Shown here piece by piece: positions 14,913 through 35,999 of a DNA stretch of 64,000 nt. The stretch spans positions 96,001 through 160,000 of the forward strand of contig OZ242214.1 of assembly GCA_965206595.1 (NCBI GenBank), in the 5' to 3' direction. The notes under the pieces are model-generated. The model saw only the letters and a list, made by a program, of their open reading frames with translations, was not told the origin of the DNA and did not search any database. This DNA comes from Candidatus Latescibacterota bacterium. Lineage in GTDB: Bacteria > Latescibacterota > UBA2968 > UBA8231. The translations under genes and the position numbers were made by a program. Numbering within the stretch: position 1 is the stretch's first letter; the number at the start of each line of letters is the position of its first letter.

Positions 14913-16358
14913 GGCTCCTCTGGAGAATCTGTGGGTGAGGAGGGGAGGCTGCGGCGATGGGAATAGAGGAGGCCAGGTAGCCCAGGCGCATCATCCCCCG
15001 GTATGTTGGGACAGTCCACCAAGACGGAACCCAACTACCTGTGGAGGGAATGATGCGCCTGATCACGGTACTAAACCGGTGCACGACCTTCAAGCGGTTT
15101 GTGTTTGAGGGCAGTCATTTTGACCGGCACGGAAGGATAATGGTGAGGATCAGGCCACGGAAAAACTCCCGGGGCGCGTGCAGCGGCTGCGGTCACTTGG
15201 CCCCCACCTATGACACGGCCCCCGAGGCCCGGCTGTTCGAGTTTGTTCCCCTCTGGGGGTTTCCGGTCTTTCTGGTGTATCGCATGCGCCGGGTTGCCTG
15301 CAAAGCCTGCGGCCGGGTGGTCGTCGAGAAGGTCCCCTGGAGCACGGGCAAGCACCACCTGACCGACCTCTACCGCTGCTTCCTGGCCCAGGGGGCCAAA
15401 AAACTGTCGTGGATCGAGGTGGCGCGTTCCTTCCGGACCCGTTGGGACAAGGTCTACCACTCCGTCCAGTACGTCGTGGACTATGGGCTCGCTCATCGCT
15501 GCCTCGACCAGGTCACGGCCCTCGGCGTGGATGAAATCCAGTATCGTAAGGGGCCTCATTATCTGACGTTGCTGTACCAGATCGACCCCCACCGCCGCCG
15601 CCTGTTGTGGATGGGCGAGAAGCGGACGAAGAAGGCCTTGAACGACGGCTTTACCGAACGGGAGCAGGAGCACCGGCGCAAGCAGGAAGCCGGCGGCGAG
15701 CAGGAGCCGACCCGTTTCCTCGACCAGATTACCGTCATCTGCTCTGATATCTGGAAAGCCTACCTCGACGTTATCAGCAAGCGGCTCCCCACCGCGGTAC
15801 CTATTCTCGACCGTTTTCACCTCATGCAGCACTTCAGCAAGGCCCTCGACAAAGTCCGTGCCGAAGAGGCCCGCAGACTCAAAGAACAGGGCCAGGATCC
15901 GGTCCTGAGCAAGAGCCGCTGGTGCTTCCTGAAGCGCAAGGAGAACCTCAGCGACTCCCCCCCAAGGCTTGAAGCTGTCGGAGCTATTGAAGATGAACCT
16001 GCGGACGGTCAGAGCCTACCTGCTCAAGGAGGACTTCCAGCGCTTCTGGGACTACACCTACTCCGCGTGGGCTGAGAAGTTCCTCCAGCGCGGGTGTTTC
16101 CGTACGATGAGAAGCAACATCGAACCGATGAAAGACATCGCCGGAATGCTGCGGCGTCACCAAGAGCTCATCCTCAATTGGTTCAGGGCCAGGAAGCAGT
16201 TCAACAACGGCATGGTCGAGGGCTTGAACCTGAAATGGAATCTGACAGGGAGAAAAGCATTCGGATGCCGCACCTTCAAGGCACTCCAAATCGCTTCATT
16301 CCATCAGCTCGGCGATTTACCCGAGCCACAATTCACCCACGAATTCTACTGACGAGCC
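14913..16358 (+). mobile_element. ISL3-family element
   Basis: Imperfect IRs GGCTCCTCTGGAGAAT / GGCTCGTCAGTAGAAT (13/16); no TSD. Confidence 0.85.
15050..16352 (+). pseudogene. ISL3 transposase, frameshifted
   Basis: CxxC..CxxC, LGVDE, CSDIW, LDRFH and NGMVEGLN motifs; frameshift at the C7 run 15957-15963. Confidence 0.88.
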
Positions 16359-19154: not shown

Positions 19155-19476
19155 AGAGCACCTTGCCTTCCCGTAGCGCCCGGGCCAGAACGTGGTTGAG
19201 AGAGTCGCGCCAGTAATCGACCTCGTCGTGGGTATAGACCAGGACGTCGGCAGAAACCGGAAAGTCCGCCAGGACCTTGTAGAGTCTGACCATCTCTTTG
19301 TGCCGGCTCCGCTCCCGGCCGAACGGCTCGGCTTCCAAGACCACCAGATCGACGTCCGATTCCTCTCGCTCGTCGCCGCGGGCGCGGGAACCGAAGAGGA
19401 TCACCTGCTCGGGATCGACCTCGCCGACGATGGCCTGGACCATCTGGTCGATGAGGGTGTCGGTGATTCCGGTCAC
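19141..19476 (-). CDS. Minimal nucleotidyltransferase (MNT)
   Basis: ILFGSRARGD...SDVDLVV; 111 aa; overlaps both neighbours. Confidence 0.9.
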   Translation of the reverse strand: MTGITDTLIDQMVQAIVGEVDPEQVILFGSRARGDEREESDVDLVVLEAEPFGRERSRHKEMVRLYKVLADFPVSADVLVYTHDEVDYWRDSLNHVLARALREGKVLYERP

Positions 19477-21119
19477 TGCTCCACCTCTTCGAGCAGTTTC
19501 TCCAGCCCCGCAGTTATTTCACGCTCGATCGCCAGCACCTCGCGGATCAGCTCCGCGGGATCCTCGTCCGGAACCGGCTCGGCAACCCGTGGCTTGTAGC
19601 GCGAGGCGGTGAGGTTGTAGTCGTTCTCCGCAATGGTTTCGAACGGCGCCCACCAGCAGCGGGGCTCCTCGCTGCCCGGGTCGAGCACGGCGCCGGCTTC
19701 CTCGCCGGGTGGTTTCTCGAAGCGGGATTCCTTGTAATCGTTCCAGGCCGCCAGCAGCCCGGGGATGTCGTTCTCCCCCGGCGTCTCCGGACGGCCGCCT
19801 CCCTGGATCTTGTCGGGGTCGTAGCCGTCGTTGCGGATCTCGTAGAACCACACCTGTCTCGTAGCCGTCCGGCCCTCTTCCGGCTCGGTCGCCGGGCGCC
19901 GGAAGACGAGCACGGAGGTTTTGACGCCGGCGTACGGTTTGAACACGCCGGCCGGCAGCGACACCACCGCTTGCAACTCGTATTCCCGCAGGAGCTTCTC
20001 GCGCAGTTCCTTGTGAGCTCTCGTCGAGCCGAAGAGCGCGCCCTCCGGTACCACCACGGCGCAACGTCCCCCCGGCGCCAGGGAGCGCAGCATCAGGGCA
20101 ATGAACAACAGCTCGCTCTTTCTCGATTTTGTTGGCAGATCCTGGCGAATCGAGTCCCTGGGGATCTGGCCGGCAAAAGGCGGGTTCGAGAGGATCACCG
20201 CGTAGCGCCGGTTCAGATCGTCCTCGGTGAGTCCGCTCATCTCGGAGAGGACGTTGGCGCGCTTGAGGCGGGCATGGCGGATCCCGTGGAGCACGAGGTT
20301 CATGACGGAGATCCGCATCATCTGGCGCGATACGTCGGTGCCGTAGATGGATGCCTCGAGCCGGCTCCAGTCGGGTATCCTCTCCCCCGGCCCCTTCCGG
20401 TAGGTCTGGAGATTGGGGATCTCCTCTTTCACCTCTTCGAGAGTTTGCCCCCGTTTCTCGAGCCAGTCCTCACCGTAGACCGGCACTTCCTGGGGCTCCT
20501 CGCTGTAGCGGGCAAGGATGTGGTCGACGACGTCGATGAGGAAACCGGCGGTGCCGCAGGCCGGGTCGTACATGGTGTCGCCCAAGTCCGGATCGGTCAT
20601 CTCGACCATGAAGGCGCGGATCTGTCGCGGGGTGCGGAACTGGCCGTTGAGCGCCGACTGTCCGAGATGGGTGAGCAGGTATTCGAAGATGTCGCCCTTG
20701 ATGTCGGGCCCGAGCTTGCGAAAGTCGATGGAGTCGAACATGTCGATCACCTGCTTGAGCACGTTCGGATCGACGATCTCGAGCACGGCGTCGCGAAAGT
20801 ACTCGGCCACCTGCGGGTCGTCCTTGACCAGCGACGCCATGTACGGGAAGACCTCGTCGCGCACGAAGTTGCGCAGATCCTCTCCGCTCTTGAAGCGCCA
20901 CTTGGACCAGCGGAAGCGCTCGGCCTGCGCGGGAAAGAGGAGAGCGCCGTTGCCGGCCCCGAGCCGGCCTTGGAGCTCGCGGGTGGTTTCCTCCTCGTCG
21001 AGGAGCTTCAGGTATATGAGGTAGGAGATCTGCTCGATATAGGTGACGGGATTGGTCACGCCACCGGCCCACAGGATGTCGGTGATCTGGTCGAGCTTGC
21101 GCCGCAGTGTCTGGTCCAT
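19473..21119 (-). CDS. hsdM: Type I R-M N6-adenine methyltransferase
   Basis: GQFRTPR, DPACGTAGFL, NPPF and SLPAGVFKPYAGVKT motifs; start at MDQTLRRK. Confidence 0.95.
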   Translation of the reverse strand: MDQTLRRKLDQITDILWAGGVTNPVTYIEQISYLIYLKLLDEEETTRELQGRLGAGNGALLFPAQAERFRWSKWRFKSGEDLRNFVRDEVFPYMASLVKDDPQVAEYFRDAVLEIVDPNVLKQVIDMFDSIDFRKLGPDIKGDIFEYLLTHLGQSALNGQFRTPRQIRAFMVEMTDPDLGDTMYDPACGTAGFLIDVVDHILARYSEEPQEVPVYGEDWLEKRGQTLEEVKEEIPNLQTYRKGPGERIPDWSRLEASIYGTDVSRQMMRISVMNLVLHGIRHARLKRANVLSEMSGLTEDDLNRRYAVILSNPPFAGQIPRDSIRQDLPTKSRKSELLFIALMLRSLAPGGRCAVVVPEGALFGSTRAHKELREKLLREYELQAVVSLPAGVFKPYAGVKTSVLVFRRPATEPEEGRTATRQVWFYEIRNDGYDPDKIQGGGRPETPGENDIPGLLAAWNDYKESRFEKPPGEEAGAVLDPGSEEPRCWWAPFETIAENDYNLTASRYKPRVAEPVPDEDPAELIREVLAIEREITAGLEKLLEEVEQ

Positions 21120-21129
21120 CCCGTTCCTT

Positions 21130-23862
21130 TCAGCTCGCAGTCCTGAAGACGTCTTCGTCCAGCTGCTCCACCACCTGCCTGAGACCATCCTCGCCGAACA
21201 ACTCGACTCCCCTGCCGGCGGCGTCGAGAATCGACAGCGGCGGCTCGAACAGGTCGTTCAGGCTTACTCGGCCCGTGGCGATGCCCCGATTCTTCAGCAG
21301 GCAGAGGTACTCCGCCTGCTGCGGGGTGAGGGCCCGCACTACGAGCCAGGCTCGGAAGGCCTCTTCGAGCTTCTCCTCTCGGCTCTTGATGCGCAGCCGC
21401 CCGAGCGCGGCGCGGATGAAATCGACGAAGTTGCCGCCTGGCTCGCGGTAGGCGCGGCGCAGGTTCTCCTGGTTGAAGTAGTGCTCGGGCTGGTTGAGGC
21501 GGCGGGCAAGCTCCTCCTCTTCGTCCGGCTCGAGATGCTCTTCGTCGCGCACTTTCTGAAGCAGCGGATCGTCGGCCGCCCGGGATCGGATCGTCTCCAT
21601 CCAGCGGGTTAGGTATTCCTCCTTGTCGACTCGTTCTCCCTCGGGGCCGACCTCGACGTAGGTGACTGCTTCCAGCCACTCGTCCTCCAGCCCGAGCTCG
21701 ACGAGATCCCGCGTCTCCGGCCCTGTCCTGGGGCCGCTCGGGGCATGTCCACCCGACGTTCCGGTGAACACGTCGGTATCGCTGTCGTTGAAGTACTGGT
21801 GATTCCTGAAGAAGTCGTAGATGACAAATTTCCGCTTGCGGATATGCGGCGCGGTGCGCGTGCCCCGGCCTCGCATCTGCTGGTAGAGAATGGGGCTTCG
21901 CACCCTCCGGCAGAGCACGAGGTGGAGGATCTCGCGGCAGTCGAAGCCGGTGTCGAGCATGCCGACGCTCACCGCGACCATGGGGAAGGTCTCGGTCTTG
22001 AACCGGCGAATCAGGGTGTCCGGATCGGCCACGTCGGAGGTGATGACCTCGGCATAGCGGCCCTTGTGTTCGGGGTGCAGCTCGTTCAGGTACTGCGCCA
22101 GTCTCGCCGCGTGGTGCTTGGTGATGGCGAAGACGATCCCCTTGCCCGGGCCCGGGTCCTGGCCGGGAGCCAGTTCCGAATAGGTCTCCCAGGCAAGCCG
22201 GTCGAACTCCTCCATCATAAGGCGGTTGGTCTCTTCGTTGGTCCAGGCGCGTTCGAACTCGACTGGGTCATAGTGTTCGTCGTCGAGTTCGGCCCCCTGG
22301 GCCAGGATCTCGGTGATGCCTCTGGCGAAGCGGTAGGGCACGAGGTATTCCTCGTTGAAGGCGTCCTTTATTGAATAGGAGACGTCCGGTTTGCCCGGCT
22401 CGCACTGGTAGAAGTCGTAGGTGTTGCGCTCGATGAAGCTTGCCGGCGTGGCCGTGAGTCCGATATGGAGGGCGTCGAATCGCGTGAGCGCTCCCTGCCA
22501 GGCGCCATAGATGGAGCGGTGGCATTCGTCGGCGATGACGATGTCGAAGTAGCCGGCGGTGTACTCGTCGACGCGGCCAATCATGGTCTGAAGCAGGGTA
22601 ACGGTGATCTGCTGCTCCTGGCGCGCCATGCCGGGCCGCAGCCAGTAGCTCGAATACGCACCCAGAATGTCCTGGATGGCTTCAAGAGCCTGCTTGGCGA
22701 GCTGGTCGCGGTCCGCCAGGAAGAGGATTCGCTCGGCCCAGCCGGCTTGCAGGAGTCGCTTCAGGTAGAGGCAGATGAGGTCGGTCTTGCCGGTACCGGT
22801 CGGCAGCTCGATCAGGAAGCGCCGCCTGCCGAGCTCCAGCGCGTGGTCGAGCGCCTGCATCGCCTCGGCCTGGTAGGGCCGCACCGTGCGCGTTTCCCCC
22901 TGGCGGATGTAGTGCTCCGGGATTTCGACCGTGGCGAGCGGCCTGCGCGTCTCCCGCGTCTCCACCATGCGCTCGAGATCACGCTGAGAGAAGAAGCCGG
23001 CGATGGGGCGGGCGTCGTCGTTCTGGTAGTCCCAGAAGTAGGTCAGCTCCCCGTTGGTGAGGAAGATGAAGGGTGCTTCGAGCGCCTTGGCGTAGGGCAG
23101 GGCCTGTTGCTTGGCGACATAGGGATTGATGGCGTTCCTCTTTGCCTCGATGACGGCCAGCGGGCGGCCGCGCTGGTCGTAGAGGACGTAGTCGGCGCGG
23201 CCGGTTGAAGCGTCATCCGCGGCTTCGAGCAGGCAGACGAACTCGCCGACGACGCGGAGGTCCCCTTCTGCGCCTGGGTCGAAGACGAGGTCCTCGTAAG
23301 CCGGATCCGGATTGAGCGGCTGCAGCCGGATTTCGCGATGGCTCCAGCTGTCCCCATCCGGTTCGGCTGCTTTCGTGCTGCTGTATTTCTTGACGGAGAA
23401 CTCGCCTCCGAGCGCCGGATCGGTGCAGCCGCGGTGCCAGACGAGGACGAGCTTTCCCTCCCTGGTCCCGCCGCGGTCCGTCCGAAACAGGCAGTAGGAA
23501 CCGTCGGGGATGGCCGGCTCCATAGAGTGCCCTTCGATGCGGGCAACGAAGTGGTCGCGGGTGAGCCGGACGCGGCCCGGCACCGCCATCCAGCCGATTT
23601 CGTCATGCTCGGTTCCGACGGTCTGGTCCGGGCTGAATTTTCCTGCCGCGGCAATCAGACCGTAGACCGGCGCGTGCGTTTCGAATGGCCTCGCTCCCAC
23701 GCGGTCGACGATTCGGGCGCGACTGGGGGCGGAAGCCGCCTGGACCTCGGTACCGACCATCGACTGGTCGTCCGCGTCCCAGCCGGACTGCGCCAGCAGT
23801 TCGTCGATAACTATGCGGGCGTCCGCCTCGTTTTCGCGCCGGTTCATCATTTCCTCGTCCAT
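21130..23862 (-). CDS. hsdR: Type I R-M restriction subunit (EcoEI/EcoAI-like) with an inserted S24 peptidase domain
   Basis: ADYVL..IEAK nuclease motif; RPYQ, PTGTGKT, DECH, LTATP and QMRGRGTR helicase motifs; residues about 63-212 are LexA-like. Confidence 0.92.
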   Translation of the reverse strand: MDEEMMNRRENEADARIVIDELLAQSGWDADDQSMVGTEVQAASAPSRARIVDRVGARPFETHAPVYGLIAAAGKFSPDQTVGTEHDEIGWMAVPGRVRLTRDHFVARIEGHSMEPAIPDGSYCLFRTDRGGTREGKLVLVWHRGCTDPALGGEFSVKKYSSTKAAEPDGDSWSHREIRLQPLNPDPAYEDLVFDPGAEGDLRVVGEFVCLLEAADDASTGRADYVLYDQRGRPLAVIEAKRNAINPYVAKQQALPYAKALEAPFIFLTNGELTYFWDYQNDDARPIAGFFSQRDLERMVETRETRRPLATVEIPEHYIRQGETRTVRPYQAEAMQALDHALELGRRRFLIELPTGTGKTDLICLYLKRLLQAGWAERILFLADRDQLAKQALEAIQDILGAYSSYWLRPGMARQEQQITVTLLQTMIGRVDEYTAGYFDIVIADECHRSIYGAWQGALTRFDALHIGLTATPASFIERNTYDFYQCEPGKPDVSYSIKDAFNEEYLVPYRFARGITEILAQGAELDDEHYDPVEFERAWTNEETNRLMMEEFDRLAWETYSELAPGQDPGPGKGIVFAITKHHAARLAQYLNELHPEHKGRYAEVITSDVADPDTLIRRFKTETFPMVAVSVGMLDTGFDCREILHLVLCRRVRSPILYQQMRGRGTRTAPHIRKRKFVIYDFFRNHQYFNDSDTDVFTGTSGGHAPSGPRTGPETRDLVELGLEDEWLEAVTYVEVGPEGERVDKEEYLTRWMETIRSRAADDPLLQKVRDEEHLEPDEEEELARRLNQPEHYFNQENLRRAYREPGGNFVDFIRAALGRLRIKSREEKLEEAFRAWLVVRALTPQQAEYLCLLKNRGIATGRVSLNDLFEPPLSILDAAGRGVELFGEDGLRQVVEQLDEDVFRTAS

Positions 23863-23893: not shown

Positions 23894-25402
23894 TCATTCG
23901 CCCACCCCGTAGCGTTTCATCCAGTTGGTGAGGGTCTGGTAGCTGGGCAGGCCGACGAGGTCGGCCGCCCTGGTCTTGTTGCCCTGCCCCTCGTCCAGGG
24001 CCCTCTCCAGGTAGTGGCGGGCCACGGATGCCAGAATCCCGGGCAGGTCGAGACCGTCGCCGAGGGGCTTGCCAAGCACCGATGCCTTTCCGGTTTCGCC
24101 CGCGGGCAGGAGGGAGTCGCGAATGTCCTCCGTCCTCAGCGTGGCTTCCGGGGTCCAGATCGCCGCGCGTCCCAGGGTGTTCTGCAGCTCGCGGACATTC
24201 CCGGGCCACGGGTGCGCGAGAAGGAGGTTTCTCGCTCCGGAAGAAAGTTCCTTCTCCACGAATCCCGGCTGCCCCCGCCCCTCCCGGTTCACGAGGGCGA
24301 GAATGTGATCGATCAGGAGCGGGAGATCGTCGCGCCGGTCCCGTAACGGGGGCAGTGGCAGCACCGCCACCGCCAGGCGATGGAAGAGGTCCTCGCGAAA
24401 GGCGCCGGCCGCCACTTCGGACAGGAGAGAGCGGTTGGTGGCCGCGATCATTCGCACGTCCACCTTGCGGCTACGAGAAGTCCCGACCGGAAGCACCTCC
24501 CCCTCCTGGAGCGCGCGCAGCAGCTTCACCTGCGCGGGCTTGGGAAGCTCTCCCACCTCGTCGAGGAACAGGGAGCCCCCGGATGCCTCCACGAAATGGC
24601 CTTTGCGGTCCTTTGTAGCCCCCGTAAATGCTCCCTTTACGTGACCGAAGAGCTCGGATTCGACGATCTCCGGAGGAATGGCGCCGCAGTTGACGGCCAC
24701 GAAAGGCTTGTCGCGCCGCGGACTGGTGCGATGGATGGCGCGGGCGAGAAGCTCCTTGCCGGTACCTGTCTCCCCTTCGATCAGCACCGGGACGGAGCGC
24801 GGGGCGACGCGGCGCGCCCGCAGGATCACGCGCTGCATGGCCTGGCTCCGGTGCAGGATCTCCTCGAATTCCGGCGCCTCCGGGGAGAGACCGGCGCTGA
24901 GGCGCTCGAGCTCCTCGTCCGGGCGGCGCAGCAGATCCGGAAGGAAGTCTGCTGAAATATCGAAGGGGACGGACACCGTGCTGACGCCGTGCTGCTTCGA
25001 GGACTCGATCAGCTCCGCGGGAAAGCGCGTCTTCGCGAGGATGATCCATACCGCGGCCATGGCCGGCGTGCCCGGGCTCAGGTGAAAGGTGAGGGCCGTG
25101 TCCCTGGGGCCGCCGGCCAAGGCCGTCTCGCAGGCGCGGACCGCGGCGACGTAGATCTCGCCGAATTGGGTGGGACCGGTGAGCTCCTCGTGGAGCAGGT
25201 GAAGGGTGGTGCCTTCGCAGCGCTGCTCGAGCCACTGCCGGTAGGGGCGAACGGCGCCGGCCTCGTGGTCGAAGAGCAGGTAGGCGTCATCGAACTCGCG
25301 GGCCATCAGCGCCTGGGCAACCGGCCCGGTTCCGACTGTCGGCTCCTCTTCGGGAGCGTCCAGGTCCGTGTTGCCTATCCAGGTGATGAGAGTCTTTAAC
25401 AC
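23894..25402 (-). CDS. Sigma54-dependent activator with an RtcR/CARF-like N-terminal domain
   Basis: [47 protein letters not shown] and a Fis HTH; N-terminal WIG.TD and [13 protein letters not shown]-like motifs. Confidence 0.88.
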
Positions 25403-25766: not shown

Positions 25767-25994
25767 AACCAACAAGGACTGACATTATGACTACGGGTAC
25801 ACACGCCATAACTACGGATACACACGCCGTCCCCAGTGAGAAGATTGCAACGCTACAAGAGGCTCGATCTGCCATCGAGAACCTCCGCAATGAGGACTAC
25901 ACCAAGCTCATGCTCATCGCCCGCTACTTTGCGGTAACCAGACTGAATGGCACCGTTGTCGAGCCGGACGATCTCTTGCACGAAGCAATTTTAA

Positions 25995-27854
25995 CCCTTG
26001 TTATTCATGGAATTTTAGTGGAGAGGGCTGTACTGGGTGCCTCCCATGCTTAGATTTCAGAGGGAAACACAAGGCAGTATCGCCCTTTGAACCCATCACA
26101 CAGTAGGACACCCAATGGGTGAATTACCGTCACACACCGAGTCCGAGCAAGCCGGGCCGATTCAGCCGTCTTTCAACCGCTCCATCCACATCGAAGCCCG
26201 CCCCACCCACCTTGGCAGCGACACCGGTGCGCTGATGTTGCGTCAACTGCTCGAACACAGCCGGGTTCTGGATTGGGTCGACGCCCACTTCGAGGATCTC
26301 CGTACCCAAGACCAGATCACGCACCCGCTGCCGGAGCTGCTGCGCACACAGATCGTGCTGCTGGCACAGGGCTGGACCCACGCCGCCGACGCCGACGCGT
26401 TGCGCCAAGATCCGATCCTGCGTCTGGCGGTCAGCGATCGCAAAGGGCAGGCGCCGTTGCGCAGCGGCGACGAAGACCGGCCGCAGGGACTGGCCAGTCA
26501 GCCGACGCTGTCGCGCCTGCTCGAGCAAGCCTCGACTGCCTATAACCGCGAGGTGTTGGAGGAAGCCGTCCTGCGCAGCGCCCGGTCTCGTTGCCGGCTG
26601 CTGGAAGGACGGATGAAATACGAGGAGTTGGCCGTCGACATGGATGCCCTGCCGATGCCGGCGCACGGGCACCAGGCGGGGGTCGAATACAACGGCTACT
26701 TCCACGCCTCGGGGTACCATCCCCTGCTCCTCGGCTCGGCGCAGACGGGCGATTTCTTCGGTGCCGTGCTGCGGCCGGGCAACGTGCACGCCCATGAGGG
26801 CGCCTCAGAGGCTCTCGGCAAGCGCTTGGACTGGATTCAGTCGCATCTGGCCCGGCGCCTCATCCTGCGCTTCGACGCGGCCTCGGTGAGCGGGTCTTTC
26901 CTGAGTGAGCTGGAAGCGCGGGCCGACACCTCGTACGTGGCGCGCATCAAGAAGAATGCGCGCCTGGAGGAGCTGGCTCGTGCCTGGGTGGAAGGCTATC
27001 AGCAGGAGCTGGCGCAGCACCCGGAAGAGCTGCGGGAAGAGGGTTTTCGCTGTCGCGAGCTGCGCTATCAAGCCAGGTCCTGGGCGCAGCCCCGGCGGGT
27101 GGTGTTGGTCCTGGTCCCTTCCGAGACGGAAGAGCTGCCCATCGCCCGCCACTTCTTCCTGATCACCGACCAGAGTCCCCAGACGATGAGCGGCCGCGAC
27201 CTGGTCGCCTTTTATCGTCAGCGCGGCCTTTTCGAGCGCATGCTCGGCGAGTTGAGCTCCACCCTCCAGCCTCAGCTCTCCTCTACCACCCGTCGCAAGC
27301 AACACTACCGGGGTCGAGAGCCGCGTCAGCGCACCCCGTCCCGGGATGCCTTCGCTGCCAACCAGGCGCTTCTGACCTTGAACCTGCTGGCCTACAACCT
27401 GCTTCACCTGGGCCGCCAGGCCGCCGAACGCGCCGAGGCCCGACGCGGGCGGCCCCGCACATACGGACGCTCGACGACGGCCCTGAGCCTGGACAGTTTT
27501 CGACGGCGCTACCTGCGCCTGCCGTCCCGCGTCACCTTGCATGGGCGCAGGGTGGGCGTCATCCTGACCCAAGGGACGGCGGCTGCCTGGGATCGTCTGT
27601 GGAGATTTCTGGCCACGCTCAAACCGGTGGACGCGGCGATGGCGTAAGCGCAGGCCGGGTCGGTCGGGATGATGGGCTCGCAAAGGCAAGCGTCTTCGAG
27701 AAGGCGCGTACAATTTCAACAAGGTCGGTAGAGATAAGGAGACGGCTCTACCCAAAAAGCCGACTATAGAAGGGACGCAAGCCTCTGAGGCTAAGCAAAG
27801 GGGTCTCGGAAGCGCCTATGTCCGCTTATGCGCGGGTTGAATGAATAACAAAGG
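25995..27854 (+). mobile_element. Complete IS1380-family element, copy 2 (1860 bp)
   Basis: IRs CCCTTGTTATTCAT / CCTTTGTTATTCAT (13/14); 5-bp TSD TTTAA at 25990-25994 and 27855-27859. Confidence 0.95.
26115..27647 (+). CDS. IS1380-family transposase, intact
   Basis: 510 aa; SDTGAL, D.D.LR.DP, ASQPTLSR and DDE motifs. Confidence 0.93.
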   Translation: MGELPSHTESEQAGPIQPSFNRSIHIEARPTHLGSDTGALMLRQLLEHSRVLDWVDAHFEDLRTQDQITHPLPELLRTQIVLLAQGWTHAADADALRQDPILRLAVSDRKGQAPLRSGDEDRPQGLASQPTLSRLLEQASTAYNREVLEEAVLRSARSRCRLLEGRMKYEELAVDMDALPMPAHGHQAGVEYNGYFHASGYHPLLLGSAQTGDFFGAVLRPGNVHAHEGASEALGKRLDWIQSHLARRLILRFDAASVSGSFLSELEARADTSYVARIKKNARLEELARAWVEGYQQELAQHPEELREEGFRCRELRYQARSWAQPRRVVLVLVPSETEELPIARHFFLITDQSPQTMSGRDLVAFYRQRGLFERMLGELSSTLQPQLSSTTRRKQHYRGREPRQRTPSRDAFAANQALLTLNLLAYNLLHLGRQAAERAEARRGRPRTYGRSTTALSLDSFRRRYLRLPSRVTLHGRRVGVILTQGTAAAWDRLWRFLATLKPVDAAMA

Positions 27855-28234
27855 TTTAAAGACCCTCGATGGCCGCCGGCGTTGGAACCAGCAAGTTAGC
27901 ATCGTCAAACACCTTGACCGGGTCATGGAAAGTGACTCTGGCCATGAGGCCGAAAAACAGGCTGCTCGGGGCTTCAGTCAGCTACCCGAGGAAAACCTCG
28001 AGTCTGTCGACCAACAACCAAGTCCCGAAGCGCACCTTCTGGTCCACGACGAGCTTGAAAACTTGCTTGACCTTTTCGCCGGAGACGAGATCGCTCTCGA
28101 TCTCCTCCATCTGAAGGGCGACGACCTTTCCGCGTCCGAGATTCAACGCGCGCTCGGCATAGAAAAGAGGGAGTATGATACCGTGAGCAAGCGGATTCGT
28201 CGCCGCCTCGCCAAGCACTTAGCCAAGGAAGCAA

Positions 28235-28780
28235 ATGACCGGAGATCCCCACGGAAAGGACCTGACCAAGATGAACCGAGCACTGCGTGACATCCTCTTG
28301 GAGGCGTCTGAAGACGAACTCCGAGAAGCGTTCGCCGATACAGGCGAGGACCTCGACTCCCTTGCAGCCCGTGGAAAGGAAGCCGCCCAACGCGCCCTCT
28401 CCGAGACACGCGACGGCGCTGGGGTCGAAGACTTGCACCGGGGTCTGAGTGCGCTCCTTCAGATGCTGCGTCGACGTGAACAACTCTCCATTGACGTTCT
28501 CGCACAGAACGCCCACGTGGATGCATCTGAACTGCGCTGCATCGAACACGACCCGGCGTTTGACCCCAACCCCCGCACAATTTTCCAGCTTGAGCAGTAT
28601 TTCAAGCTCCCGGAGAGAAGCCTTGTCGTTCTCACTGGCGCGGTTCAGGTCGACGATGACGTTCGAGAGGAGGCGGTGCGCTTCGCTGCGAGTTCTGAAC
28701 ATATCTCAGATCTCACGAGAGCTCAGCGCAAGCAACTCAACCTATTCGTGAAGTTCCTGAGAAAACACACCGACCGATGA
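28235..28780 (+). CDS. XRE-family HTH protein
   Basis: LQMLRRREQLSIDVLA....VDASEL.CIE..PNPRTIFQL; ATGA overlap with the next gene. Confidence 0.8.
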   Translation: MTGDPHGKDLTKMNRALRDILLEASEDELREAFADTGEDLDSLAARGKEAAQRALSETRDGAGVEDLHRGLSALLQMLRRREQLSIDVLAQNAHVDASELRCIEHDPAFDPNPRTIFQLEQYFKLPERSLVVLTGAVQVDDDVREEAVRFAASSEHISDLTRAQRKQLNLFVKFLRKHTDR

Positions 28781-29754
28781 AAAATCATCCAATAGACCCG
28801 TTCGCGGCGGAAGATATTAAGGATCAGGTGGATAAGGTGCTACGTGGTCTGGATAACCCCGAACCACCGCTAGACCTAGGCGATGTGCGTGAACTTCTCA
28901 AACTTGACCTCCAGTTCTACAGCACTAGGAATACTGGAGCACTCCGCGAGTTCGTGAGCAGGGTTAAGGTAGGGGGAAAGCAGATCGCGATGAGGCCAAC
29001 CCTCATCCTCGACGTGGTCAGCCAAGCAGGTTTGAAGGCCCTTTGGATTCCTGATAGGAGCCGCATCCTTATCAACGAAGAGCTTCATAAACTAAAAAGG
29101 CGGCACGCGGTAGGCCACGAAATTACGCACAGTATCATGCCCCACCATCGTCTGTTCTTGTTTGGCGACGACCGTGAGACGTTGCGTACTTCGTGTCACG
29201 AGAAGCTCGAGTCAGAGGCCAACTTTGGCTCTGGGCAGCTCCTTTTTCTTAGGGAGCGATTTGTTGAAGAAGCGAACGACTTACCGCCAACCCTCAACAC
29301 GGTTCAAAAACTAGCCAAGAGGTTCGGCAACACTATAACCATGACTTTGTGGCGACTCGTTGAGGAAGCTCACGCAGGCAAACCTGTCTTTGGTGTGATC
29401 TCCCCACACCCGAAGCGTCTTTGCGACGACTTCGACCCGACGACGCCATGTCGTTACTTCATCGAGTCTCCGGCATTCCGCGAGCGTTTCGGTATTGTCA
29501 CTGAAGTAGCTGCCTTCGAAGCCATACAGGAGTACGTATCATGGGCGCGCCGAGGCCCGCTGGGGGAGAGCTACGGTGATTTCGTTGGCTGTGATGGAGA
29601 ATCGCATCGTTTCCACATGGAGACGTTTTTCAACGGTTACGAGGCGCTTACGATCGGTACTCACCGTGGTCTCGTGCCCGCGCAGGTGGCTGTTCCGGCA
29701 GACTATCCTCATCCAATGTCCGCGGAGCCATCACACACCGGCATAGGTAAGTAG
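28777..29754 (+). CDS. ImmA/IrrE (CapP-like) zinc metallopeptidase
   Basis: ILINE..RRHAVGHEITH (HExxH) and E.EANF motifs, an HTH-like segment LAKRFGNT and a C-terminal extension. Confidence 0.88.
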   Translation: MKNHPIDPFAAEDIKDQVDKVLRGLDNPEPPLDLGDVRELLKLDLQFYSTRNTGALREFVSRVKVGGKQIAMRPTLILDVVSQAGLKALWIPDRSRILINEELHKLKRRHAVGHEITHSIMPHHRLFLFGDDRETLRTSCHEKLESEANFGSGQLLFLRERFVEEANDLPPTLNTVQKLAKRFGNTITMTLWRLVEEAHAGKPVFGVISPHPKRLCDDFDPTTPCRYFIESPAFRERFGIVTEVAAFEAIQEYVSWARRGPLGESYGDFVGCDGESHRFHMETFFNGYEALTIGTHRGLVPAQVAVPADYPHPMSAEPSHTGIGK

Positions 29755-29829
29755 TAGCACCAGTGGCCCACCTTCTGAACGAGGGGGCCACCTTCACAAT
29801 CCCCGTTAGACCAAAGAGGAGATCAATCG

Positions 29830-30162
29830 ATGGGAACCAATGTTTCCGGAACTACCGAGCGCGAAGAACTCGACATCGAGGCTTTCGCCAAAGAACAACC
29901 CGATCTCGAGAAACCACCCGCTGGCGTCTACATCATCCGCATCGACCGAGAGCGGAAGCGTGTGCATGAGCCGGAGCTTCCCGGGATCAAGATTCTTGCG
30001 CTGGTGGGCAAGACGCCAGACACCCACAAGCTCTTCCAGAAGTTCCATGGCGGCGAAACCAAGGAAGTCAAGGAGGAAGAGGTTGTGAGCTTCCTCAAGG
30101 AGGGCATCGAACGATTTCAGACCATCCCGAAGGACACCACTGAAGGGATTTTTGGTGGTTGA
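29830..30162 (+). CDS. Multiubiquitin-family ubiquitin-like protein (one beta-grasp domain)
   Basis: YIIRID....V....L.G..IL.LVGKTP..L....VSF...GIERF.T pattern; ends TTEGIFGG; GAGGA RBS. Confidence 0.8.
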   Translation: MGTNVSGTTEREELDIEAFAKEQPDLEKPPAGVYIIRIDRERKRVHEPELPGIKILALVGKTPDTHKLFQKFHGGETKEVKEEEVVSFLKEGIERFQTIPKDTTEGIFGG

Positions 30163-30565
30163 CGACCGGCGTCAGTTCCAGTTACCCGATTTCGATCTTG
30201 AGTTTCTCGACCGCCGCGGCCGGCCGTGGGAGGCGGTGGTCGAGAACGGCATGCATTGGGTAGTTCTCCACGACCATCCGGTTTCCAAGGGCTACAACCA
30301 CACGAGCGTGAGCGCCGCACTTCAGTTGCCGCAGAGTTATCCTGACACTCAAATCGACATGGTGTACTTCTACCCGCATCTGGCACCGACCAACGGAAAG
30401 CTCCCCCGCCGACTTTCGTCCCATAAATTCGACGGAAAGATCTGGCAACGGTGGTCACGGCACCGCACAAATGCCAACGTGTGGCGCCGCGGTTACGACT
30501 GTATCGAGACACACCTCTTGCTTGTCAACGAGTGGCTTGAACGCGAACTCAGATGTGCCGCTTGA
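30152..30565 (+). CDS. Prokaryotic E2 (family E-like) UBC-fold protein
   Basis: LP..D..FL, P...GYN, LP.SYPDTQIDM.YF.P and WQRWSRH motifs. Confidence 0.82.
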   Translation: MVVDDRRQFQLPDFDLEFLDRRGRPWEAVVENGMHWVVLHDHPVSKGYNHTSVSAALQLPQSYPDTQIDMVYFYPHLAPTNGKLPRRLSSHKFDGKIWQRWSRHRTNANVWRRGYDCIETHLLLVNEWLERELRCAA

Positions 30566-31950
30566 GTGATATCCGACTCCGTCTGACGGGTCAGCAACAC
30601 GCCGATTTGCGCCAACATCTGTTTCCAGGTGACGGGAAAGAGGCGGTGGCGGTTGCTCTTTGTGGCCGAACGGCATCACTTGGGTCGGAAATCCTGCTCG
30701 TTCACAAGCTAGACCTCGTGCCCCACGAGGCGTGTAAGCGCCGCCGAGACCGAATCAACTGGCCCCCGACGCACGTTGAACGGTTTTTCCGCGAGGCTTC
30801 CGCTAACGACTTGGCCATCGTAAAGGTACACAGCCACCCCGACGGCTTCGGTGGTTTCTCGAGTACCGACGATGATTCAGACAGAAAGCTATTCGAGTCG
30901 GTCTATGGTTGGGTCGATGGGGACCGCCCGCATGCAAGCGCCATTATGCTGCCGGATGGTCAGATACGAGCTCGCGCAGTGTCAGCCGGAGGAGCGTTCG
31001 CAACGGTGCGCCACGTTCAAGTTGTAGGTAACGATGTTCTCTTCTGGCCCGACCAACCGGAGTTGGCAGTCCCTGCGTTCGCCGAACGCCACGCCCAGTT
31101 ATTCGGACTTGGCACAACTGCGTTACTTGGCAGCCTCCGGATCGCTGTGGTGGGATGCTCTGGAACGGGCAGCCCGGTCATCGAGCAGCTCGTTCGCCTT
31201 GGGGTGGGGGAACTCGTGCTCGTGGATCCCGACCACGTTGAAGAACGGAATCTCAACCGAATCCTGGGGGCTACAGTAGAGGACGCAAGCCAAGAACGGC
31301 TCAAGGTGGACGTGATAAAGCGCCACATCGACCGGATTGGGCTCGGTACGCAGGTTTATAAGTTCGCTTCCGCTCTGCAGGACCAGGCAGCCATGAGAGC
31401 TGTCGCGGCTTCCGACCTCGTTATTGGGTGCATGGATGGCTTTTCGGGCCGCCACATGCTTGCACGGCTCATTCGCTACTACCTTCTCCCTTACATCGAT
31501 GCCGGCGTGAAGCTCGAAGCCCTTGAAGATGGAACCATCAACCAAGTCGCTGGGAGTGTTCACTACCTCCAACCGACAGGTCTCGACTTTATCGACCGCG
31601 GTGTGTTTACCCTCGAAGACCTCGAGGCTGAGGACCTGTTTCGAACGAATCCCGAAGAATACCGTGAACGACACGCCCGAGGCTATGTTCGTGGGGTTCA
31701 GGTTGACCGCCCTGCAGTCATCAGTGTGAACATGTACTTCGCAAGCCTTGCCGTGAACGAGGTCCTCGCCCGGCTACATCCCTTCCGCATGGACGACAAC
31801 GAGGAATTTGGGACCACCCGCATGAGTCTCAGTCATTTCCAGCTTGAAAACGAAGGTGACGGGCTTGCTCCTCCCCGTATGCTCGCTTCGGTTGGCCGTG
31901 GCGACATCGACCCTCCCCTCGGAATGCCGAGTTTGGGATCACGCCCATGA
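30553..31950 (+). CDS. JAB/MPN peptidase-ThiF/E1 adenylation enzyme fusion
   Basis: N-terminal E..HSHP..FS.TDD JAB motif; C-terminal VVGCSGTGS, DPDHVEERNLNRI, K and GCMD E1 motifs. Confidence 0.9.
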   Translation: MCRLSDIRLRLTGQQHADLRQHLFPGDGKEAVAVALCGRTASLGSEILLVHKLDLVPHEACKRRRDRINWPPTHVERFFREASANDLAIVKVHSHPDGFGGFSSTDDDSDRKLFESVYGWVDGDRPHASAIMLPDGQIRARAVSAGGAFATVRHVQVVGNDVLFWPDQPELAVPAFAERHAQLFGLGTTALLGSLRIAVVGCSGTGSPVIEQLVRLGVGELVLVDPDHVEERNLNRILGATVEDASQERLKVDVIKRHIDRIGLGTQVYKFASALQDQAAMRAVAASDLVIGCMDGFSGRHMLARLIRYYLLPYIDAGVKLEALEDGTINQVAGSVHYLQPTGLDFIDRGVFTLEDLEAEDLFRTNPEEYRERHARGYVRGVQVDRPAVISVNMYFASLAVNEVLARLHPFRMDDNEEFGTTRMSLSHFQLENEGDGLAPPRMLASVGRGDIDPPLGMPSLGSRP

Positions 31951-32384
31951 ACGTGCTGAAGCAAGTCTGGTCTTGGCTTCGGTGGCCTTTTTCTCCAACC
32001 CCTGTGCACCGTCCAGTGGTTGTCGAGGAACTCCCGGAGCAGTTCTACGCCGGGGAGATATATCTGATTGGCGAGGATGGACATTTCTGGTGTGCTGCAA
32101 TGCTCTGCCCGTGCGGATGCAGAGCAATCATCCAGCTTAACCTCGTTGCCGGAACTCGACCTCTTTGGACATTCGAACTCGATTCCGACACCAAAGCCAT
32201 CACCCTACAACCCTCGGTCTGGCGCACTGCAGGCTGCCGCAGCCATTTCAGTATTCAACTGGGTCGTGTGCGGTGGTATCGATCACGGCGTTCGTTCAGA
32301 TCAATGCTGAGGGTGCTCAGGGACTGGGTCGACGAAAAAAGGATGCCGCCTGGGCTCGGATCCCATCGCCGCAGTGCGGCTTAA
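31947..32384 (+). CDS. DUF6527-like Cys/His-rich protein
   Basis: CPCGC...I.LNL...P.W...TL.PSVW...GCRSHF.I..G.V.W; ATGA overlap with the E1 gene. Confidence 0.78.
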   Translation: MNVLKQVWSWLRWPFSPTPVHRPVVVEELPEQFYAGEIYLIGEDGHFWCAAMLCPCGCRAIIQLNLVAGTRPLWTFELDSDTKAITLQPSVWRTAGCRSHFSIQLGRVRWYRSRRSFRSMLRVLRDWVDEKRMPPGLGSHRRSAA

Positions 32385-34424: not shown

Positions 34425-34754
34425 ATGAAATCTTCCCGATCCCAACAGGCCCTCCCCTTCGGGGTGCGGCGCGCCCTGCAGAAGCTGGGCATGGATGTCT
34501 CGGCCGCCCGGCGCCGGCGCCGGATACCCATGGCGCTCATGGCCGAGCGCGCCTTCATCAGCCGCACCACGTTGGCGAGGGTCGAGAAAGGGGACCCCGG
34601 CGTATCGATGGGCATCTACGCCTCTGTCCTCTTCGTCCTGGGAATGGCGGACCGCCTGGGAGATCTCGCGGACGCCGCCCGAGATCCGGTCGGGCTGGGC
34701 CTCGAAGAGGAGCGGCTGCCGCGTCGCATCCGTACGCCGCGGCAGGCACCATAG
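34425..34754 (+). CDS. HTH antitoxin (HipB-like)
   Basis: ARRRR....MAERA.ISRTTL.RVEKGDPGVS; directly upstream of hipA. Confidence 0.85.
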   Translation: MKSSRSQQALPFGVRRALQKLGMDVSAARRRRRIPMALMAERAFISRTTLARVEKGDPGVSMGIYASVLFVLGMADRLGDLADAARDPVGLGLEEERLPRRIRTPRQAP

Positions 34755-34763
34755 GGGGCCGCC

Positions 34764-35999
34764 ATGGAGCGTGAGATTCTGGTCTTCATCGACCGGGCCG
34801 GTGAGACCGTTTCCGCAGGCACCCTGTGGGCGCGGACCCGAGGAGCCCGTCAGACCGCCTCCTTCGAGTACGACCCTTCCTGGCTGGCGCGCCGGGACGC
34901 CTTCGGACTCGATCCCGTGCTCCCTCCGGCACGCGGGCAGTTCCACACCGACCGGCCCCTGTTCAACGCCTTCACCGATCCCGCCCCGGACCGCTGGGGA
35001 CAGACTCTCATGCGCCGCAACGAGCTCCGGAGGGCGTGGGCGGAAGGGCGCCAACCGAGAACATTGCTGGCCGTCGATTTCCTCACCCTGGTCGACGACG
35101 AGACGCGGCTCGGCACGCTGCGGTTCAAGGAGGCCGGCGGCGGCCCGTTTCTCACCTCGACCGGCAGGCAGGTGCCGCCGGTTGTCGACCTGCCTCGGCT
35201 GCTGTCCGCCGCCACCCGCGTCATCGATGCCAACGAGACCGACGACGACCTGCGGTTGCTCCTGGCCCCCGGAACCTCGCTCGGGGGAGCTCGAGCGAAA
35301 GCCACGGTCCGCGACCGGGACGGGCACCTTCTGATCGCCAAGTTCCCGCGCCGGGACGACGACTGGCCGGTGACGCGATGGGAAGCGGCCACCATGGCGT
35401 TGGCCGAGGCGGCGGGGGTCCGGGTCGCGCCGTTCCAGCTCCTGCAGGTAGCGAACAGCCCCGTATTCATGGCCCGGCGCTTCGACCGCAGGCAGGGCCG
35501 GCGCATCCCTTTCATGTCGGCGCTCACCGCAATCGAGGGGTCGGACAACGAGATGCGAAGCTATCTGGAGATCGCCGAGTTCCTGCGGCGGGAGGGACTG
35601 GAGGTGAACGAGGACCTGGGTCAGCTCTGGCGCCGGATCGTGTTCAACATGCTGGTGTCCAACACCGACGACCATCTGCGCAACCACGGCTTTCTCCGGG
35701 AGCAGAACGGCTGGCGGCTTTCACCGGCGTATGACCTCAACCCGGTGCCGGCCGACGTGAAGCCGCGCGTCCATGCGCTCGCGATCGACGAGACGGACGG
35801 CACGGCGTCCTTCGACACGGCCATGGAGGTAGCCCCGATGTTCGGCATGACGGGGCAGGCGGCGCGCGCGACAGCAGCCGAGGTGGGCAGGGCGGTCCGT
35901 GGCTGGCGGGATGCGGCGGCCGGCATCGGCATTTCGGCGAATGAAACCGAGCGGATGTCCAGCGCCTTCGATCACGACGACCTCGAGGCGGCGATCTGA
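34764..35999 (+). CDS. hipA: HipA-family kinase toxin
   Basis: SLGGARAK, IAKFP, RRFDR, NTDDHLRNHGF and LSPAYDLNP motifs. Confidence 0.93.
   Translation: MEREILVFIDRAGETVSAGTLWARTRGARQTASFEYDPSWLARRDAFGLDPVLPPARGQFHTDRPLFNAFTDPAPDRWGQTLMRRNELRRAWAEGRQPRTLLAVDFLTLVDDETRLGTLRFKEAGGGPFLTSTGRQVPPVVDLPRLLSAATRVIDANETDDDLRLLLAPGTSLGGARAKATVRDRDGHLLIAKFPRRDDDWPVTRWEAATMALAEAAGVRVAPFQLLQVANSPVFMARRFDRRQGRRIPFMSALTAIEGSDNEMRSYLEIAEFLRREGLEVNEDLGQLWRRIVFNMLVSNTDDHLRNHGFLREQNGWRLSPAYDLNPVPADVKPRVHALAIDETDGTASFDTAMEVAPMFGMTGQAARATAAEVGRAVRGWRDAAAGIGISANETERMSSAFDHDDLEAAI

Follow-up and report, generated by a model that had tools for sequence, protein, structure and literature searches.

Gene Content of the Locus

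We analyzed a 64,000-nt stretch of DNA (hereafter the window) from a Candidatus Latescibacterota bacterium (GenBank assembly GCA_965206595.1, contig OZ242214.1, positions 96,001 to 160,000 of the forward strand). Six same-strand genes at 28235–32384 (+) encode a ubiquitin-like protein (Ubl), an E2, a JAB-E1 fusion and a serine protease, preceded by two regulator-like proteins (Table 1). The original prediction dealt with positions 30152–31950, which span two of these genes. All expected Pfam families were found in operon order and all six reading frames are open. Neighboring genes overlap by 4, 11, 13, and 4 nt, and the single gap, of 75 nt, precedes bubA. Operons of the 6E/DUF6527 kind were named Bub by Ye, Gong, Chambers, and Corbett, who describe Type I as BubAB + BubCD + BubE (Ye et al., bioRxiv 10.1101/2024.11.21.623953) and who solved structures from the Type I system of Citrobacter sp. 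RHBSTW-00271 (PDB 9ea4, 9ea5, 9ea8, 9eae, and 9eav). We consider it highly probable that the locus is an intact, horizontally acquired Type I Bub operon (formerly 6E/DUF6527), located in a defense/mobile-element neighborhood and carrying CapH/CapP-type regulators upstream. For this operon itself we established which genes it contains, their homology, and the mapping and conservation of the catalytic residues, as described below.

Table 1. Genes of the Bub operon and features in its vicinity (HTH, helix-turn-helix; ORF, open reading frame; IS, insertion sequence).
Feature	Position in window	Strand	Remarks
CapH-like HTH regulator	28235–28780	+	longest ORF 181 aa; HTH_19 (weak)
CapP-like M78 (IrrE/ImmA-type) metallopeptidase, CapH partner	28777–29754	+	325 aa; Peptidase_M78
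BubA, ubiquitin-like protein	29830–30162	+	110 aa; Multi_ubiq (PF14452) E 1.3e-7
BubB, stand-alone Cys-independent E2	30152–30565	+	137 aa; Prok-E2_E (PF14462) E 2e-34
BubCD, JAB/JAMM metallopeptidase fused to ThiF-type E1	30553–31950	+	465 aa; Prok-JAB + ThiF
BubE, DUF6527 serine protease	31947–32384	+	145 aa; PF20137 E 9.3e-20
IS element, DDE_Tnp_1_4 transposase	26115–27647		upstream of CapH
HsdM-like, type I restriction-modification set	19473–21188	-
HsdR-like, type I restriction-modification set	21130–23862	-
Sigma-54 enhancer-binding protein	23894–25402	-	adjoins type I restriction-modification set
ISL3-family transposase	15041–16075	+	DDE_Tnp_ISL3 E 1.5e-32; second mobile element nearby
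109-aa ORF, then HipA-like kinase	34425–35999	+	109-aa ORF, no Pfam match; HipA_C E 2.5e-48

The JAB-E1 Fusion BubCD

Pfam placed Prok-JAB at residues 18–121 and ThiF at residues 180–338 of one ORF, the JAB part occupying approximately residues 1–165. The only cysteines of the protein are at positions 2, 37, 61, 202, and 293, and C293 belongs to the GCMD motif (292–295). A Cys-x-Asp motif like the one at C293 occurs in ThiF and MoeB. The original prediction stressed that neither a Cys nor a CxxC pair follows GCMD, and the last 170 residues are indeed Cys-free. To place this in the context of the family, we took the best 150 representatives from a library-wide search (475 matches at E ≤ 1e-30) and aligned the 121 homologues of 430–490 aa, 29 being excluded by the length filter. 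The missing Cys by itself is unremarkable because 170 consecutive residues would lack Cys with P ∼0.16 at the protein's own Cys frequency (1.1%), and some Cys after the GCMD point is present in 110 of the 121 full-length homologues. The family-level pattern is the real signal. In the crossover-loop region (query residues 345–395) Cys was found in 12/121 homologues, scattered and never at a common column, and the column of Tyr378 (31684–31686) is Tyr in 120/121. This residue lies within RERHARGYVRG (371–381), the stretch to which the prediction had drawn attention.

The adenylation site (G201xG204xG206, R236, K251, and D295) was found in the ThiF part. The metal-type JAB motif that had been read from the translation is likewise in place (E30, H93-S94-H95, S103, and D106), with an intact metal site. 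BubCD matched the solved Citrobacter BubCD 9ea4_A with an E value of 4.3e-85 over residues 7–463. In this alignment Citrobacter Tyr370 corresponds to Tyr378 of the window protein, the Y in GYV; the Citrobacter JAB residues E28/H91/H93/D104 correspond to the identical residues E30/H93/H95/D106, and R227 to the identical R236. Residues were mapped by hand counting on the alignments, and the +2 offset of the BubCD chain was fixed from the D104A substitution. An AlphaFold2 model of BubCD built from 66 sequences reached a mean pLDDT (predicted local distance difference test) of 95.1 and places Y378 in a coil after two short helices at 354–375; a crossover loop of like shape was described by Ye et al. 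The eight best Foldseek matches of the model were all Citrobacter BubCD chains (template modeling score 0.82–0.87, identity 36–38%).

Not all of the 121 E1 homologues keep the JAB catalytic residues (E30 in 98, H93 in 101, H95 in 99, and D106 in 105). Some of these homologues begin to align with the query only at around residue 125; they probably carry another N-terminal domain, for example that of Type II E2-E1 fusions.

The E2 BubB and the Serine Protease BubE

BubB is 137 aa long if started at TTG 30152, or 136 aa if started at GTG 30155. A Ser in WSRH and two Cys nearer the C-terminus had been reported for it, and they were found as Ser102 (WSRH, residues 101–104) and as C117 and C135, the only Cys of the protein. 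Ser102 (30455–30457), His104 (30461–30463), and Asp69 (30356–30358) form the active-site triad. BubB matched the Citrobacter BubB 9eae_C with an E value of 9.8e-21, and the alignment, again counted by hand, equates S333/H335/D299 of Citrobacter with S102/H104/D69. All 120 BubB homologues have Ser102 and His104, and 119/120 have Asp69. The C135 column is Cys in 20 of the 120.

The gene directly downstream of bubCD was overlooked in the original prediction, which combined oxyester chemistry with a metallo-JAB. It encodes BubE; the JAB peptidase does not stand in for the serine protease, and both enzymes are present. BubE has a dyad of Ser90 (32214–32216) and His100 (32244–32246), a predicted zinc site made of C54, C56, C58, and C97, and a hydrophobic N-terminus. 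Ser90, His100, C54, C58, and C97 were found in all 101 BubE homologues, and C56 in 100/101. Ser, Cys, and His follow one another at distances of 7 and 3 residues, as do S92, C99, and H102 in Citrobacter. Ye et al. found BubE to be a Ser-His peptidase of weak activity; it removes conjugates and is inactivated by S92A or H102A. They also reported that every Type I operon has a JAB-E1 fusion and a separate DUF6527 serine protease; the novelty implied for a metallo-JAB combined with oxyester chemistry thus gives way to the standard Type I layout.

Proposed Oxyester Relay and Alternatives

In the published Citrobacter system, BubCD has one invariant Tyr and lacks the crossover-loop Cys, and the E2 active site of BubB consists of Ser/His/Asp. 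Conjugation was lost in vitro and in E. coli with Y370F and, separately, with S333A/H335A, and oxyester intermediates were proposed (Ye et al.). These are the residues aligned with Tyr378 and Ser102/His104, and the original prediction, which proposed oxyester chemistry on the E2 Ser and perhaps also on the E1 Tyr, is supported by this homology. By analogy, the window operon would perform the same biochemistry as its Citrobacter homologue. Modeled on that system, the pathway would start with BubA made with a short tail, from which the JAB domain of BubCD may expose Gly106. The E1 domain would adenylate Gly106 with ATP by means of R236, K251, and D295, and Tyr378 on the mobile crossover loop would take the Ubl as a tyrosyl oxyester. 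The Ubl would then pass to BubB, where His104 and Asp69 would activate Ser102 to form a seryl oxyester. BubB would move the Ubl onto a target lysine, and the Ser90-His100 protease BubE would remove the conjugates. No cysteine thioester would take part in this relay.

Several points weigh against this assignment. BubCD of the window shares just 36–38% identity with the characterized Citrobacter BubCD; the BubAB fusion, which is part of the Type I definition in the text of Ye et al., is missing; and an IS element lies ∼0.6 kb 5' of the regulator genes, where it might affect expression. Phage protection has not yet been shown for any Bub operon (Ye et al.). On the chemistry, the authors state that the Ubl~tyrosine oxyester was not directly demonstrated, and the BubA-BubCD band, the sole adduct of the two that they saw, persisted with Y370F and was judged off-pathway.

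The lack of a directly observed Ubl~Tyr ester leaves room for a relay with one oxyester instead of two, in which Tyr378 acts non-covalently, by gating or positioning the loop, and BubB Ser102 attacks the BubA acyl-adenylate directly. The Y370F-resistant adduct would agree with this, as would the BubA-bound crystal of Ye et al., in which the Tyr faces away from the adenylation site. Against it stand the near-invariance of the Tyr in our alignment, the complete loss of product with Y370F, crystals that place Y370 beside S333/H335, and an AlphaFold model in which the Tyr hydroxyl is 3.7 Å from the phosphate of adenosine monophosphate (Ye et al.). We regard a purely non-covalent Tyr as unlikely and favor the relay with both tyrosyl and seryl oxyesters.

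The locus could also hold no working conjugation system at all, being either a decayed remnant or an adenylation pathway of the ThiS/MoaD (sulfur-carrier) type, for which an E1 cysteine is unnecessary. In favor of this are the ThiF-like E1 domain, the IS element upstream with a disrupted gene next to it, and the absence of the operon from two of two same-genus genomes. All six genes are nevertheless open, with overlaps of the translational-coupling kind, and no catalytic residue has been lost; sulfur transfer has no role for an E2, a JAB peptidase, or a DUF6527 protease, and the homologous system conjugates proteins (Ye et al.). A non-conjugating locus is therefore very unlikely. Least likely of all is a cryptic thioester route with BubB Cys117 or BubCD Cys293 as the true nucleophile: the C293 column is Cys in 120/121 homologues and the C117 column in 74/120, but we rejected both candidates on the grounds that C117 is replaced by N, D, S, or G in 46/120 (Ser in the active Citrobacter BubB), that in the AlphaFold2 model C293 lies in the core of the adenylation domain, next to the Mg-binding Asp and off the crossover loop, and that the homologue loses its activity when either the Tyr or the Ser/His is mutated on its own (Ye et al.).

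Comparison With Known Systems

All published catalytic residues of the Citrobacter Type I Bub system are kept in the window. Both systems have a JAB-E1 fusion that lacks a catalytic Cys and bears a Tyr on its crossover loop, an E2 with a Ser/His/Asp triad, a DUF6527 Ser-His protease with a four-cysteine zinc site, and a Ubl with a putative reactive C-terminal Gly. They differ in that BubA and BubB of the window are separate and overlap out of frame, whereas Citrobacter has a BubAB fusion; BubA of the window (110 aa) has one beta-grasp domain and that of Citrobacter three; the predicted reactive Gly is followed by a 4-residue tail in the window and by the fused E2 in Citrobacter; and the window operon has CapH/CapP regulators. 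Alike in gene layout, the only feature compared, are the Type I operons with separate Ubl and E2 that bear just the mark 'DUB+E1 fusion' in Table S1 of Ye et al., such as those of Hyphomicrobium denitrificans and Verrucomicrobium sp. 3C, which often have CapP + CapH.

Type II Bub (BubA, BubBD, BubE) resembles the window operon in the E1 crossover-loop Tyr, the E2 Ser, the DUF6527 protease, and the proposed oxyester chemistry. It differs in its E2-E1 (BubBD) fusion, in lacking JAB, and in having Lys + His beside the E2 Ser in place of the His/Asp pair; in the window a separate ORF encodes the E2, and a JAB domain is fused ahead of the E1. Canonical E1/E2 systems and Bil operons share with the window ThiF-type adenylation of the Ubl C-terminal glycine, an E2 of the ubiquitin-conjugating fold, and a JAB peptidase. 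They use Cys thioesters on both E1 and E2, unlike the window system, in which BubCD is Cys-free after residue 293 and Ser102 occupies the E2 active-site position. In Bil operons the E1 combines tandem adenylation domains with a Cys domain and JAB is a separate protein; none of this was seen in the window. The JAB-E1 fusion, the loop Tyr, the Ser/His/Asp E2, the adjacent BubE, and the Multi_ubiq Ubl all place the operon in Type I, the BubAB fusion being the one missing feature.

Separate bubA and bubB Genes

The bubA and bubB genes are two ORFs in different frames that share 11 nt. We considered whether they represent a BubAB fusion broken by a frameshift or a sequencing artifact, which would take a one-base shift at the junction, and rejected this because stand-alone E2s are common, because three relatives have the same split with other junction sequences, and because split operons have been catalogued. 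Among 309 candidate E2 homologues of 75–240 aa, 301 were stand-alone proteins (∼136 aa). Of the 120 E2 homologues listed, 118 carry PF14462 only and 2 are short Ubl-E2 fusions. The three relatives (L001, L002, and L003), the only loci obtained in a search for related loci with BubCD and whose BubCD is 87–88% identical to that of the window, come from records labeled as two Latescibacterota and one Rhodothermales metagenome-assembled genomes (MAGs). In Table S1 of Ye et al., at least 31 Type I operons have the Ubl and the E2 on separate genes, and CapP/CapH accompany many of these. Since that table files these split operons as Type I, the BubAB fusion was not used as an exclusive Type I feature. 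The window operon belongs to this catalogued split subtype.

A genome scan found the E2 in 17/168 genomes of the window's phylum. Of the 15 strong E2 loci in the phylum, 13 are short ORFs (134–173 aa) and 2 are fusions of 394 aa. The E2 ORFs of five same-family genomes (L013, L015, L016, L018, and L019) are 172–173 aa long, approximately 35 residues longer than BubB of the window; the extension is too short for a beta-grasp domain.

The C-Terminal Tail of BubA

The AlphaFold2 model of BubA shows a single beta-grasp domain (pLDDT 80.7), with residues 106–110 below 50. Its fold matches were multi-ubiquitin proteins and Citrobacter BubA(155-229). The sequence runs …KDTTEG to Gly106 (30145–30147) and ends with the 4-residue tail IFGG, so that two candidate reactive ends, Gly106 and the terminal GG, had to be weighed.

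The motif ERFQTIPKDTTEG was present in 76/80 BubA homologues. In these 76, the tail after the motif measured 0 (3 homologues), 1 (7), 2 (1), 3 (5), 4 (57), 5 (1), or 6 residues (2), and the tails have no conserved sequence. GG ends 15 of the 66 tails of at least 2 residues, and G ends 34 of the 73 non-empty tails. Gly106 itself is invariant in 63/63 aligned BubA sequences and aligns with the final residue of the solved multi-ubiquitin chain 9d59_A. We rejected a reactive end at the terminal GG on account of the variation of the tails in length and sequence beside an invariant Gly106. Together with the alignment to the 9d59_A end and the disorder of residues 106–110 in the model, this indicates that the reactive end of BubA is most likely Gly106 rather than Gly110, and that the terminal GG most likely exists only because bubA overlaps the start of bubB.

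Ye et al. reported that the JAB domain cleaves BubAB directly after the Ubl glycine. Judging from the sequences, the JAB domain of BubCD probably trims the BubA tail in the split operon; trimming of this kind is not stated in the abstract, Results, or Discussion of that work. We lean slightly toward a general reading for split Type I Bub operons, in which the out-of-frame bubA/bubB overlap adds a short, non-conserved tail to the Ubl, JAB is kept for trimming it, and Ubl activation stays protease-gated without a BubAB fusion.

Regulators and Genomic Neighborhood

The CapH-like ORF matched HTH_19 with an E value of 1.5e-4, under the curated cut-off, and PADLOC HTH_VI with 4.5e-6. Its gene overlaps the M78 gene by 4 nt, and the gene order is alike in the relative L002, where CapH starts at the Met equivalent to position 28271 (169 aa). 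The M78 protein matched Pfam Peptidase_M78 (E 1.2e-7) and PADLOC capP (E 3.1e-12). CapH + CapP are carried by 31% of 544 catalogued Bub operons (Ye et al.).

The IS element upstream of the CapH-like gene has split a gene, leaving an 88-aa ORF (25787–26053) and a 149-aa ORF (27841–28290). In L002 they correspond to the two halves of a 189-aa gene (1113–1682) that is intact and whose DNA is contiguous. The 189-aa gene had no Pfam match; by eye we had the impression of a small sigma-factor-like HTH protein. Farther upstream lie the type I restriction-modification set, whose HsdR-like ORF also matches Peptidase_S24 at residues 66–208, the sigma-54 enhancer-binding protein, and the ISL3-family transposase. 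The 109-aa ORF and the HipA-like kinase, which lie ∼2 kb past the 3' end of the Bub operon, are likely a toxin-antitoxin pair.

The G + C content of the cluster is 56.9% vs. 64.0% for the window. In the scan of the 168 phylum genomes, the E2 family was absent from both of the two same-genus genomes. This G + C content, 7 points lower, the absence from the same genus, the presence of the E2 in so few of the phylum genomes, and the high BubCD identity across Latescibacterota and Rhodothermales MAGs suggest a recent horizontal transfer of the Bub operon. The low G + C, the neighbors, and the same-genus absence together fit a mobile defense-island gene set, a setting reported for other Bub operons as well (Ye et al.).

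Significance

Cysteine-free Ubl conjugation has been in print since 2024, backed by mutants and crystal structures, and the present locus brings no new principle. In the literature searched, Bub is characterized in two preprints of the Corbett laboratory and, judging from the search listing, mentioned in passing in one later paper that exists in two versions. It is a clean and complete case of the less-studied split BubA/BubB layout, found in an uncultured lineage and with close relatives labeled as Latescibacterota and Rhodothermales MAGs. Our analysis makes one small addition, namely that Gly106 would be the conserved reactive glycine and IFGG a variable tail. Gly106, not the terminal GG, would then be the residue to expose when BubA of the window is expressed. 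Tail trimming, if true, suggests a reason why JAB is retained in operons where no fusion needs cutting.

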